Sequence record: PV018828
DNA length: 64,000 bases
From: Escherichia phage YW01
Reading direction: 5' to 3' (one strand)
Numbering within the stretch: the first letter of the stretch is position 1; each line of letters starts with the position of its first letter. A program made the position numbers and the translations under genes. Positions 49,901-55,976 of the stretch are shown here, piece by piece. Below the pieces are notes generated by a model. It was not told the DNA's origin. It did no database searches and saw only the letters and a list, made by a program, of their open reading frames with translations.

Positions 49901-50167
49901 TCATTTGTTTTCCTGTGGAGTTAAGATAATTTCAGCTTTACTGAACTTCTCACCAACAACCATATCACCAGAGATGACACGCAGTTCTCCAGTGCCTAAG
50001 TTAACAGCTCCAGCAGGTTGACAACCCCTGCTTTTAGCTGTCATCATATAAACCTTTTGATTTTGGCACTCTTGGAGAGTGAACACATCTGACATATTTA
50101 GATCTCTGACGCGGAGGATTTTTTCCTCTTTGTCTTTAACTTTAATGTTAATAATGCTCATATGCAC
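49901..50167 (-). CDS. small protein, expanded paralog family member
   Basis: Shares L.L..L..(G/S)D.F + Y/W + VNL..G pattern with at least 9 other small ORFs. Confidence 0.45.
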   Translation of the reverse strand: MHMSIINIKVKDKEEKILRVRDLNMSDVFTLQECQNQKVYMMTAKSRGCQPAGAVNLGTGELRVISGDMVVGEKFSKAEIILTPQENK

Positions 50168-50412
50168 TACTCCTGAACCACTGACATACGAATCATTTCT
50201 ACCTGATCATCAAGACCTTTAACAGATAACATACCTGTGGAAAGGTTTACCACAGGAACCCAACCACTGGCTATACGGATGTTACCAGAAGCATTTTCAA
50301 CCCTCATGTAATACTGAGGAGAGGCACTTCCGTTCTGAACCACGAAAGGGTTTCCGGGAATGATTGTTTCCAATCGTACCGTATTATCCTTTTTCTTTGG
50401 GATGATTTTCAT
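50167..50412 (-). CDS. small protein, expanded paralog family member
   Basis: VRLETIIPGNPF..YYMRV..VNLSTG. Confidence 0.45.
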   Translation of the reverse strand: MKIIPKKKDNTVRLETIIPGNPFVVQNGSASPQYYMRVENASGNIRIASGWVPVVNLSTGMLSVKGLDDQVEMIRMSVVQE

Positions 50413-50660
50413 TGCGTATTACCCACCAAAAGTTCTGCTGATACAGGAACAACCTGACAACGACCAAGAGGGGCTGAAACAACCCCATCACCTAGCCGGA
50501 GAGTAGGTATCCGGTTATCTGGGATTTTGATGTTAGGACTTAAGGTAACAATCCCTTTCACATAAAGATCTTCATTGTGTGGGAATTTAAACACAGAACC
50601 ATTAGCTAGAGAGCTTAGCTCTACTGCTTCTACTTCCTCTTTCTTATATGTGATTTTCAT
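50409..50660 (-). CDS. small protein, expanded paralog family member
   Basis: VELSSLANGSVFKFPHNEDLYVKG close to 51523..51744. Confidence 0.45.
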   Translation of the reverse strand: MKITYKKEEVEAVELSSLANGSVFKFPHNEDLYVKGIVTLSPNIKIPDNRIPTLRLGDGVVSAPLGRCQVVPVSAELLVGNTQ

Positions 50661-50668
50661 ATTGATTC

Positions 50669-50980
50669 CTATTTAAGTTTGAGGCTAATGTTAAGGTGCA
50701 TACATGCCCTGTTCTGTACGGCAGAATAACTTCTACCGAGCATGTCAGCCATTCTCTGAATAGACATGAACCCAGCATTACGGATAAGGAACTGGTCTTC
50801 TTCTTTAGACCACTTGACTCGGATTACAGCTCTAGAAATACCGAACTTAGTGCAAGCTGTATTAACTGCATTCTCCGTTACATTCATAATCTGAGCAACC
50901 TCTTGAACCGAGTACTCTTTGATTAGTCTCCGAAGATTTTCAATCTGCATAGGAGTCCATATAGTTCTTCGTGCTTTCAT
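50669..50980 (-). CDS. DNA-binding protein with two helix-turn-helix-like repeats
   Basis: Tandem W..x6-8..L..segments (WTPMQIENLRRLIKEYSVQEVAQIM and WSKEEDQFLIRNAGFMSIQRMADML). Confidence 0.4.
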   Translation of the reverse strand: MKARRTIWTPMQIENLRRLIKEYSVQEVAQIMNVTENAVNTACTKFGISRAVIRVKWSKEEDQFLIRNAGFMSIQRMADMLGRSYSAVQNRACMHLNISLKLK

Positions 50981-51339
50981 ACATCCTCCAGTTAATTGTT
51001 AAAACTATCAGGGGAGCACACTAGCTCTGGGCCACGCTGTAGATATCGGCCTACCTTCCACAGCTAATCAGCTAATGTACTCTCCTAATAGTTTATGAAT
51101 AGGGGGAGGGGACGAATCCTCCCTTATCCTATTAATTAATATTGCATGTAAGACCTAACAATCGGTTGCCTTTGTAGGAATAAGCGTAAAGCCAATCCAG
51201 CACCAAACTCCCGCCCCCTTAGTGGGCTGGGTTATTAAAGGGTAACGCCCTTATGGGCTAGTTACATGAATGTTAGTTTGATAGGAGATCTGAAGTCCTA
51301 TCTCAAAGGACTCTCGTAAGAATCCTTCACGATAAGCTC

Positions 51340-51513
51340 TTAACAAGATTGATCACATGGCTGATCACCACATGTTTTACAGATCACTGGTGAATAACTA
51401 CAGGCAGGATACACTGATACACCATCAAACGTTTCACACCCACAATCAGGGCATATACCATTGGATTCCATGTCATCGTCATCATACACTTCTCCACCAC
51501 CATAGCAGCTCAT
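51340..51513 (-). CDS. small Cys-rich (zinc-binding-like) protein, 57 aa
   Basis: AGGAG RBS 5 nt before ATG; 12 Cys; antisense to ORF-track 51357..51542. Confidence 0.35.
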   Translation of the reverse strand: MSCYGGGEVYDDDDMESNGICPDCGCETFDGVSVYPACSYSPVICKTCGDQPCDQSC

Positions 51514-51522
51514 ATGAACTCC

Positions 51523-51744
51523 TTAATAAACTAAACCTATAGCCTTTGCATCAGGCTGAGGGACTACTTTTGCACTAGGGCGATAGCCATCCACTGAGCC
51601 GTTCCAAAGATTGACACAGGTGATATATCCATCGTCTATGATGTCTGTTTTAATCCAGAAGTGTTTATCATGACCAAAAATACTTCCGTTTGGCAGCGTG
51701 GACAATTCAACAGTTTTAAGTGACTGCTTAGAGTCTAGTTTCAT
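51523..51744 (-). CDS. small protein, expanded paralog family member
   Basis: VELSTLPNGSIFGHDKHFWIKTD..GYITCVNLWNGSVDGYRP; near-duplicate of next gene. Confidence 0.5.
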   Translation of the reverse strand: MKLDSKQSLKTVELSTLPNGSIFGHDKHFWIKTDIIDDGYITCVNLWNGSVDGYRPSAKVVPQPDAKAIGLVY

Positions 51745-51753
51745 ATAAGTTCC

Positions 51754-54013: not shown

Positions 54014-54093
54014 TTGAGCTTCCTCTTGTTAGTTTAAGTAAGAGTTGTCCATTAATTAAAACAACAAAGGCCACCAAAAAGGCAGCCTTTTAT

Positions 54094-54345
54094 TCATTTC
54101 TGTTTTAAACCAATCAGACGGTTTTGTAAAAACTCATCTTCTGCATTATAAAGGAATGCGAACATTAATTCCTTAGCCATATCTCTCGAACAGTTAAGAC
54201 ACTTAGATATTTGCGTTAGTTGCATGTTGCGATCAGTGTGTTCCATCAAGGCAATGCGAATGATCTCTCGCATACCTATTACATGGGCTGTTTTAACCGG
54301 CATAGGTCCAATTACCTTGCTTGTTACGAATGGCTGACATTGCAT
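54094..54345 (-). CDS. hypothetical protein
   Basis: 83-aa ORF. Confidence 0.35.
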   Translation of the reverse strand: MQCQPFVTSKVIGPMPVKTAHVIGMREIIRIALMEHTDRNMQLTQISKCLNCSRDMAKELMFAFLYNAEDEFLQNRLIGLKQK

Positions 54346-54791
54346 GAACCCAGAAGCCTTCCAGTTTCAGAGCACCGTTAGCTACTGCATCCATACGTTC
54401 AGGGCGGTTCATACGTTTGGTTGATACTTTCATACCTATCTCTCTTTGTTAGTGGAGGCATTATTGCCAGTTGATATAAGGGATAGCCCTAGTCAGTAGA
54501 CTAACCCTGACCGCGTACTCATTGCCGACCTTCTCTGCCTAAGAGTTCAGGTTCTAGAGCTATCTCTTATCCCAACTGGTGAAGACTCCCTACCCCTAGG
54601 AAGTCTCCTGAATCCCAAACCAATACGTACCCCTACATATCGGAAAGTCTTTCGAAAATTAACAGGTTTTAGTCTAACACCGGATGTTCGAGCAAGCTCT
54701 CCCTAGCGGTGTGGCATATGCCTGAATTAATAAGTTAATGAGGAACACCCTCACATAGCCCTCTGATAAACACAAGGGCTATAAGTCGGTG

Positions 54792-55010
54792 TTACTTTTG
54801 GGATAAACACAGATCGGGACGTGGCATAACAGTGGTTGATAGACCGAAGACTTCAACATAACCACTACTCAAGTTAGCAGCCTTACACAAACCATCAGGG
54901 GTTTTATCTTCTAGCATCAGCCAGAAACGTTTATCGTAAGAGAAAACATCACCACCTTTAACATCTTCTGCATTTGCATATTTAGGATAATCAACTACTT
55001 TAATTTCCAT
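54792..55010 (-). CDS. small protein, expanded paralog family member
   Basis: EDVKGGDVFSYDKRFWLMLED..ANLSSG. Confidence 0.45.
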   Translation of the reverse strand: MEIKVVDYPKYANAEDVKGGDVFSYDKRFWLMLEDKTPDGLCKAANLSSGYVEVFGLSTTVMPRPDLCLSQK

Positions 55011-55020
55011 CTACTTACCT

Positions 55021-55239
55021 TTATTGATTGATGGTTAGATGAACTAACTTATTAACATGAGCGAAGTTAGGAAGGATTTGCATCTCGTTGTTAAGGATAT
55101 TAAAACAACGAACCCCGCCCTCTACAGCATAGGCAGATTTCTGAAACAGGCTACCTCTCCACACAAATACATCATGTGTTTCAAGAGATCGCAACTGAAC
55201 AGCCTCATCAGCAACCTTCTTTTCAATGTTCATAATCAC
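55021..55239 (-). CDS. small protein, expanded paralog family member
   Basis: VQLRSLETHDVFVWRGSLF..FNILNN. Confidence 0.4.
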   Translation of the reverse strand: MIMNIEKKVADEAVQLRSLETHDVFVWRGSLFQKSAYAVEGGVRCFNILNNEMQILPNFAHVNKLVHLTINQ

Positions 55240-55487
55240 TTCCGATTGGTAATTACTACATTATGGATAACCGAAACAGGTAAGTTTGAGTCTAGCTTCA
55301 TTACTTGATTGGTATTTAAACTAAGTACTACACAACCATTCCGAAGATCAGTCTCTGACACATGTGGTGTGTATAGCTGGACAATCATGTAATGGTCAAT
55401 ACATGTTGCCTTCACTTGGAATACATCTCCAAGTTTCAAATCACCTACTTTCAGCTCTGGATTCTTAAACTCAAGATCAATCTTCAT
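55236..55487 (-). CDS. small protein, expanded paralog family member
   Basis: LKVGDLKLGDVFQV..YMIVQ..VLSLNTNQ. Confidence 0.45.
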   Translation of the reverse strand: MKIDLEFKNPELKVGDLKLGDVFQVKATCIDHYMIVQLYTPHVSETDLRNGCVVLSLNTNQVMKLDSNLPVSVIHNVVITNRK

Positions 55488-55713
55488 CTTTAACCTCTAT
55501 ATTAGTTATGTGAAGATCACTGCGTACTTGGCAGACTTCATCCCGTTTAAAAGGCATGAGCTTTCCAGTTACCACATCAACACAGTTCACATAGTTATCT
55601 GCGTACAGGGTGTCGGTTCTAATGTAAAGAGAGTCTTTACGCTCAAATAGAACGCCCGGCTTCATGTTGTTTAAGCGAAGCATTGTACGATCGGATTTAA
55701 TATTAACTTTCAC
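55477..55713 (-). CDS. small protein, expanded paralog family member
   Basis: LRLNNMKPGVLFERKDSLYIRTD..VNCVDVVTG. Confidence 0.4.
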   Translation of the reverse strand: MKVNIKSDRTMLRLNNMKPGVLFERKDSLYIRTDTLYADNYVNCVDVVTGKLMPFKRDEVCQVRSDLHITNIEVKDED

Positions 55714-55715
55714 TG

Positions 55716-55976
55716 TTAATCCACCTTATTGGTAAGCCGAGCATTGCTGACCTTCTTGATGACTGTATTACCTTCATCCGTTGCAATAACGCCACAGGAA
55801 AGATTGATATAACTTCTCTTGTCTGTTGTCCCAAACTTCTGACTAGATAACATATAGTAATTCTCCCCATCCAGAGGGAACTGGAATACATCACCTGATT
55901 CTAAATCCCCAAGAGTTAAAACCTTTGGGGCGTTGTTCATATCAATTATCACTGTTAATCTCCTGCTGCTTAGCAA
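55716..55976 (-). CDS. small protein, expanded paralog family member
   Basis: LTLGDLESGDVFQFPLDGENYYML..INLSCG. Confidence 0.45.
   Translation of the reverse strand: MLSSRRLTVIIDMNNAPKVLTLGDLESGDVFQFPLDGENYYMLSSQKFGTTDKRSYINLSCGVIATDEGNTVIKKVSNARLTNKVD

Follow-up and report, generated by a model that had tools for sequence, protein, structure and literature searches.

The ten small genes that lie between positions 49,901 and 55,976 of a 64,000-nucleotide stretch of Escherichia phage YW01 DNA (sequence record PV018828; the whole stretch is called the window hereafter) encode a single family of homologous proteins. The family is real and widespread, and it falls within a well-known class, the small early accessory proteins of phages. 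The window belongs to a phiEco32-like podophage (Kuravirus, Gordonclarkvirinae); the region shares 97% identity with Escherichia phage KM01 and 83–95% identity with about 100 further phiEco32-like podophages. An earlier note, written by a model from the sequence letters, had described these genes as an expanded family of at least ten paralogs and had read them as a host-takeover or anti-defence arsenal evolving under an arms race. All ten open reading frames (ORFs) that it listed are present on the minus strand, and each is called here by its lower coordinate. As far as the literature and Pfam show, the family has not been described before as a family and has no name; the searchable literature mentions neither the family nor any paralogy among these genes.

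Because pairwise BLAST links only some of the ten proteins, profile tests were used. In leave-one-out profiles from which close paralogs were also held out, each member scored above 2000 of 2000 shuffled versions of its own sequence. The lowest scores were 12.3 bits, for 55021, 55236 and 54792, and 9.4 bits for 51754 with its two closest paralogs removed; 49901 scored 24 bits compared with a maximum of 9.9 among its shuffles. An external-only profile, built from 99 proteins of other phages and containing no window sequence, retrieved exactly the ten among the 389 ORFs of the window with E-values of 4.6e-21 to 3.1e-9, and the next ORF stood at 0.046. When 1803 six-frame fragments were searched with the same profile, the same ten only were returned, indicating that the window contains no relic copies. 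The count in the window is exactly ten and not "at least ten".

The ten proteins are assigned to PHROG types 12612, 7431, 7832, 6570 (three members), 33163, 9955 (two members) and 16423, all of which are annotated as unknown function, and colinear cross-matches between PHROGs link all ten, down to an E-value of 2.8e-8. In the alignments, F23 is invariant, G20, G49 and V60 are conserved in at least 90% of sequences, and both an aromatic residue and V/I-N-L-x-x-G are present, in agreement with the shared core described earlier. Each member gives a full-length, colinear profile match and is a stand-alone protein of 68–87 amino acids (aa) that carries the G-D-x-F, aromatic and V/I-N-L-x-x-G motif. 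No homology to unrelated known families was found: searches of Pfam and NCBIfam with the ten proteins and 100 relatives gave no family match, catalytic or otherwise, and the PDB contained no sequence relative at E <0.07. The shuffling test and the external-only profile (E ≤3.1e-9) give the proposed family solid statistical support.

Two other ORFs were considered and rejected as members. A homolog of phiEco32 gp78 (39575–39760, minus strand, 61 aa) was consistently the best non-member but never reached significance with the external-only profile (E = 0.046, partial alignment). Its E-values ranged from 0.001 to 0.4 across the family profiles, a pattern that probably reflects chance, although the ORF may be a degenerate relative. 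The ORF at 39757–40005 (minus strand), which is amino-acid identical to phiEco32 gp79, a characterised ~9-kDa regulator that binds host RNA polymerase, was not retrieved by any family profile and is unrelated in sequence.

The ten genes form three sub-clusters, A (49.9–50.7 kb), B (51.5–52.0 kb) and C (54.8–56.0 kb), rather than the two runs (49.9–52.0 and 54.8–56.0 kb) recognised earlier, and neighbouring family genes overlap by 1–11 nucleotides (nt). Cluster A comprises 49901..50167 (phrog_12612 type; external-only profile E = 2e-12), 50167..50412 (phrog_7431 type, 81 aa; E = 8.6e-15) and 50409..50660 (phrog_7832 type, 83 aa; E = 5.8e-14), the start of which has a 4-nt overlap with the stop of the neighbour of a D5-like regulator. 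Cluster B consists of 51523..51744 (phrog_6570 type, 73 aa; E = 4.6e-21), the most consensus-like copy, and 51754..51975 (73 aa; E = 1e-17), for which the same 222-bp coding sequence (CDS) is annotated in KM01. The description of these two genes as near-duplicates did not hold: they are 56% identical in amino-acid and 62% identical in nucleotide sequence, and their synonymous sites are saturated, indicating that they are old paralogs. Cluster C contains 54792..55010 (72 aa; phrog_6570 type, E = 3.9e-32; external-only profile E = 3.1e-18), 55021..55239 (phrog_33163 type; E = 3.1e-9, the lowest profile score of the ten), 55236..55487 (phrog_9955 type, 83 aa; E = 1.4e-10), 55477..55713 (phrog_16423 type, 78 aa; E = 3.5e-17), which cross-matches phrog_6570 (E = 2.8e-8) and phrog_7832 (E = 3.3e-6), and 55716..55976 (phrog_9955 type; E = 1.7e-16). 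All ten are on the minus strand. In three of the genes the true start codon probably lies within the ORF as originally delimited: an ATG at 50161 in 49901..50167, which would give 86 aa (phrog_12612 aligns from residue 3, E = 3e-43), an ATG at 55233 in 55021..55239, which would give 70 aa, and, in 55716..55976, a GTG at 55952 (the KM01 annotation) or an ATG at 55940. The ten proteins are 70–86 aa long, with isoelectric points (pI) of 4.9–9.2 and net charges of −2 to +2, and a membrane or hydrophobic segment was found in none of them.

The protein of 51523 was chosen for modelling. AlphaFold2 models showed five beta-strands, with a predicted local distance difference test score (pLDDT) of 83 when the ten-sequence alignment was used and 88 when 100 sequences were used, and with core values of 95–97. 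The models confidently predict an SH3-like five-stranded barrel, and the other nine members probably share this fold given their homology. Structural neighbours of the model are protein- and nucleic-acid-binding small barrels, including the uL2 C-terminal domain, EF-P/eIF5A domain I, Tudor, KOW, DtxR-SH3, FeoA and VapX, as well as the RNA-polymerase-binding domains of UvrD and CarD. No KOW, EFP_N, Tudor, LSM or SH3 match was found in Pfam, either with the ten proteins at E up to 1 or with 100 relatives at E up to 0.01. The N-terminal M-K-I-x-x-K segment (residues 1–10) ranks with the best-conserved stretches of the family, but its pLDDT is ~55 in both monomer models; it may pair with a second chain, or its conservation may stem from the requirements of translation initiation.

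To describe turnover within the genus, we compared nine genomes: the window, KM01, phiEco32, SU10, NJ01, YF01, 1-6af, Bas90 and Bas91. Each carries 7–10 members (10 in Bas90, 8 in Bas91), which together make up at least 15 orthogroups at 60% identity. The 50167, 51523 and 55477 types occur in all nine, and 50167 exists as two allele classes (~67% and 96–100% identity). Accessory types include 55021, present in 5/9 genomes, and 55716, also present in 5/9, with its slot absent or replaced in the other four, while 51754 was found only in the window and KM01. Several slots carry alternative orthogroups. The 55236 slot, for example, is occupied by a different orthogroup in KM01, Bas91, SU10 and 1-6af, even though KM01 is 97% identical to the window, and the window lacks the gp98 and gp109 types of phiEco32. 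Compared with the eight relatives, family members are 22–100% identical in amino-acid sequence, with gaps, and most of 17 non-family neighbour genes are 93–100% identical. The family thus comprises the most variable genes of the early region.

The ratio of nonsynonymous to synonymous substitution rates (dN/dS) within orthogroups was 0.05–0.28 (median 0.16), compared with 0.066 for 14 neighbour genes, a difference of ~2.4-fold (Mann-Whitney p = 0.03). These low values indicate that each paralog is kept functional under purifying selection, which excludes a selfish or non-functional origin, and that this selection is somewhat more relaxed on the family than on its neighbours. Column conservation was 0.8–1.0 almost everywhere within orthogroups; between orthogroups only ~12 scaffold positions were highly conserved, namely those in the N-terminal M-K-I, the hydrophobic-x-L-x-x-L, the G-D-x-F, the strand-2 aromatic residue, the V-N-L-x-x-G and the strand-5 V. 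Few shared positions combined with orthogroup-wide conservation is the pattern expected of a diversified repertoire of binders. The present diversity comes mainly from old duplication together with exchange of genes or alleles, not from ongoing rapid divergence. The arms-race and anti-defence interpretation is only partly supported. The genes do lie in an early accessory region, are the most variable genes there and share few positions among paralogs; on the other hand, the paralogs are ancient and not actively diversifying, and their orthogroups are under purifying selection.

The early assignment comes from related phages. The ten genes lie in the accessory part of the genome whose counterparts in phiEco32 and SU10 were assigned by experiment to the early class, which the host RNA polymerase transcribes (PMC8948821, PMC4281155, PMC9965538). 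GC skew indicates minus-strand transcription of the window from ~16 kb to its right end. Upstream of the family genes and on the same strand are three promoter-like, near-consensus sigma-70 sites (63297–63270, 60969–60941 and 60335–60307), each with 11/12 matches, at the locations reported for the early promoters of phiEco32 and SU10 (PMC4281155). Strong terminator-like hairpins are also seen within the early region, at 58461–58434, 56902–56883 and 54090–54066. If these are functional, transcription must read through them to the family genes.

The family extends far beyond Kuraviruses. An exhaustive HMMER search of 1.84 billion cluster representatives returned 673 clusters (50% identity) at E up to 1e-3, nearly all of them stand-alone proteins of 68–87 aa that aligned end to end. 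Matches of the first profile to RCC1 and NHL propellers were spurious beta-strand matches and were rejected. Among the best 150 matches were 11 tandem two-domain fusions of metagenomic origin, 116–184 aa long (P0147, P0149, P0156, P0166, P0175, P0179, P0196, P0207, P0228, P0234 and P0244), both halves of which match the profile significantly, suggesting that the domains can act in pairs. Members that BFVD and local profile scans identified in named phages include N4 gp21 (profile E = 6.3e-18; Foldseek TM 0.80), with further members in N4-like phages, LUZ24 gp7 (E = 1.4e-10), PaP3 ORF.65 (E = 5.5e-8) and four copies in the half-genome of Salmonella phage 7-11 that was scanned. The scans also placed members in LAMP, in T4-like Erwinia and Klebsiella phages, and in Vibrio, Proteus and Yersinia phages. 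A tblastn search with the T4-like member P0217 returned three Erwinia phages only and no named T4 gene, and a word-indexed search with the broad alignment gave no additional named relatives.

Three metagenomic contexts were inspected. In a T4-like phage, the single copy lies close to RnlB, Y10B and DUF2774. A 135-kb phage that encodes Pol III alpha and NrdD has its one copy flanked by a Macro-domain gene and DUF3310. The third phage, on a contig of 50 kb, has four copies in a group of small genes, Lar and Fic among them. At least ten PHROG families belong to the superfamily, including 6570, 7832, 7431, 8365, 16423, 9955, 12612 and 33163. Judging from these sequence matches, the family is widespread in lytic phages of Gram-negative hosts, usually in 1–4 copies, and is expanded in Kuraviruses. 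In the named phages listed above, public annotations of members are "uncharacterised" or obviously wrong. Two further mis-annotations were noted: a member in phage EcoN5 (BFVD A0A7L4XW47) is called "Endolysin", and the NJ01 ortholog of 55021 (locus L011 10033-10251) is recorded as a "putative two-domain glycosyltransferase".

The only experimental evidence found comes from a distant homolog. LUZ24 gp7 (YP_001671880, 77 aa) belonged to a set of 13 early ORFans, each of which was expressed from a single copy in P. aeruginosa PAO1 (PMC4635203). Only gp4, gp6, gp9 and gp11 of LUZ24 inhibited growth, whereas gp7 was non-toxic and did not reduce biofilm (PMC4635203), which argues against a host shut-off toxin. 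Nor is the family specific to this phage group, since it occurs at 1–4 copies in N4, LUZ24, PaP3, 7-11, T4-like and other phages. A virion role was also considered. The SU10 members (CDS 96–98, 102, 107 and 111–114) are missing from the 34-protein SU10 proteome, in which six other early proteins were detected, and nothing therefore points to such a role.

We tentatively propose, as a plausible account that falls short of a probable one, that the family supplies the phage with a set of early, soluble and non-toxic binders of SH3-like fold, each of which engages its own partner during infection. Ten soluble, single-domain proteins of ~8–9 kDa would be built on one SH3-like scaffold and produced early from promoters of the host RNA polymerase. 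The ~12 conserved positions would fix the scaffold, while the remaining surface would be specific to each paralog and kept among orthologs. Each paralog would bind a different macromolecular partner through protein-protein contacts and would modulate or block that partner without killing the cell, and phages would gain, lose and exchange paralogs according to the hosts that they encounter. The proposal starts from the homology, the fold, the early-region location, purifying selection, paralog-specific conservation, turnover and the non-toxicity of one distant homolog; from these we infer that the proteins act by binding, that their targets are host factors (possibly defence proteins) and that each paralog has a target of its own. 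The Macro, Lar, Fic and DUF3310 accessory genes near distant members are also in its favour. Several points weigh against it. SH3-like barrels can also bind RNA and DNA, so that the partners need not be proteins. Very old paralogs under purifying selection are as compatible with stable housekeeping functions in the phage cycle as with counter-defence, and the 50167, 51523 and 55477 types, being present in every Kuravirus compared, behave as core rather than accessory genes. In addition, the non-toxicity datum concerns one distant homolog expressed in single copy in another host, and the structure model covers one of the ten proteins (51523).

A narrower form of this binder proposal, which we regard as unlikely, is that each paralog neutralises a different immune system, such as restriction-modification, toxin-antitoxin or abortive infection. 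This would explain the unusual defence resistance of Gordonclarkvirinae, which are reported to be remarkably resistant to restriction-modification without a known inhibitor and sensitive only to Fun/Z (PMC11990801). The variability of the family within the early region, its ~2.4-fold higher dN/dS and the Lar, Macro and Fic genes that adjoin distant members all fit an anti-defence arsenal, and the non-toxicity of LUZ24 gp7 is usual for anti-defence proteins. However, the same BASEL study proposes that DNA modification, through a dCTP deaminase and a nucleotidyltransferase, is behind the restriction resistance (PMC11990801). Moreover, no member matches any characterised anti-defence protein in sequence or structure, purifying selection acts across each gene, and several paralogs are core to the genus.

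The fold itself raises a different explanation, namely that the proteins are nucleic-acid-binding small barrels, similar to KOW, Tudor, Sm or EF-P domain I, that act on RNA, DNA, the ribosome or RNA polymerase and retune host or phage gene expression. In that case the functional site would be the conserved motif residues and not the variable surface. The family-wide conservation of the polar residues D21 and N47 is consistent with this, and the structural neighbours of the model may hint at a nucleic-acid, ribosome or RNA-polymerase role. We nevertheless give it little credence: the Pfam searches described above matched none of these domains, net charge is only −2 to +2 at pI 4.9–9.2 with no basic patch evident in the sequences, and ten copies with different surfaces are hard to square with a single shared ligand. 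It is similarly doubtful that the partners belong to the phage, with the family serving as small chaperones or as assembly or regulatory adaptors for early and middle phage proteins, possibly as homo- or hetero-oligomers of neighbouring paralogs, and with turnover reflecting co-evolution with those phage partners. The universal presence of three paralog types in the nine Kuraviruses and strongly purifying selection would be expected of such a role. The tandem fusions suggest domain pairing, and the conserved M-K-I segment, left unplaced in the models, could join strand exchange. The 1–11 nt gene overlaps are compatible with translational coupling, but overlaps of this kind are ordinary in phage operons. 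The family also occurs in unrelated phages (N4-, T4- and LUZ24-like phages and the 135-kb Pol III alpha phage) without an obvious common partner, and no member was seen in the SU10 proteome.

A broader idea, which we consider improbable, is that this ancient SH3-like scaffold gives lytic phages of Gram-negative bacteria a general platform for binders, the viral equivalent of nanobody or repeat-protein repertoires. Each Kuravirus copy would then neutralise a different host immune or stress factor, acting alone or as a heterodimer with its neighbour. If this were true, the unexplained broad defence resistance of Gordonclarkvirinae would be accounted for.

The surroundings of the three sub-clusters showed several other features. 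Directly upstream of cluster A is the "D5-like transcriptional regulator" (50669–50980, minus strand), in which two similar W-x...helix-turn-helix-like halves can be discerned by eye; its phiEco32 ortholog is only 62% identical, and those of seven other genomes are 96–98% identical. Small Cys-rich ORFs with paired CxxC-type, Zn-ribbon-like motifs are interspersed with the family genes (51340–51513, 53202–53411, 53420–53584 and 53837–54013, minus strand) and may constitute a second small paralog family. The 3′ end of a tRNA-Arg(TCT) gene (52679–52754) is overlapped by 10 nt by an HNH homing-endonuclease ORF (52745–53167, minus strand, 140 aa). This ORF is present in Bas91, KM01, YF01 and 1-6af and absent from phiEco32, NJ01, SU10 and Bas90, and because of this patchy presence it looks like a mobile insertion beside the tRNA gene. 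The operon is otherwise tightly packed, but two unusually long gaps contain no ORF of at least 60 aa (50981–51339, 359 bp, and 54346–54791, 446 bp). Both adjoin family clusters, and related phages annotate only very small ORFs there. Upstream of cluster C, a 98-aa ORF (55942–56238, minus strand) is mis-annotated as "DNA helicase" in the phiEco32 and BASEL records.

Among the still unexplored sources of inhibitors of bacterial machinery and immunity, small early phage proteins are the principal one, and it is usual to regard them as ORFans without relation to one another. In the present case, the ten or so "hypothetical proteins" of each Kuravirus, the orphans of N4, LUZ24, PaP3 and 7-11, and proteins from hundreds of metagenomic phages can be merged into a single structural family. 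Recognition of the family makes a rational study possible: the scaffold is conserved, the surfaces differ by paralog, and near-identical phages such as the window and KM01 offer natural swaps. The hosts of Bas90 and Bas91 include E. coli K-12 with its O-antigen restored, so that deletion and interaction screens are directly feasible.

Among known systems, phiEco32 gp79 and LUZ24 gp4 (Mip) resemble the family in that they are small cytoplasmic proteins of <100 aa encoded in an early operon and, where this is known, bind one host protein. T7 Gp2 is another small early host-takeover protein of a comparable kind. All three are, however, unrelated to the family in sequence and fold and are single-copy, whereas the family is a multi-copy set on one scaffold. 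The classical SH3, KOW, EF-P N-terminal, Tudor and Sm families have the barrel topology in common with the model, but their sequence profiles are not matched. The true homologs are LUZ24 gp7, PaP3 ORF.65 and N4 gp21, uncharacterised early or middle ORFans of model podophages, 74–79 aa long, that give full-length profile matches, carry the same motif and lie in early or accessory regions; each is single-copy in its own phage, compared with the ten copies found here.

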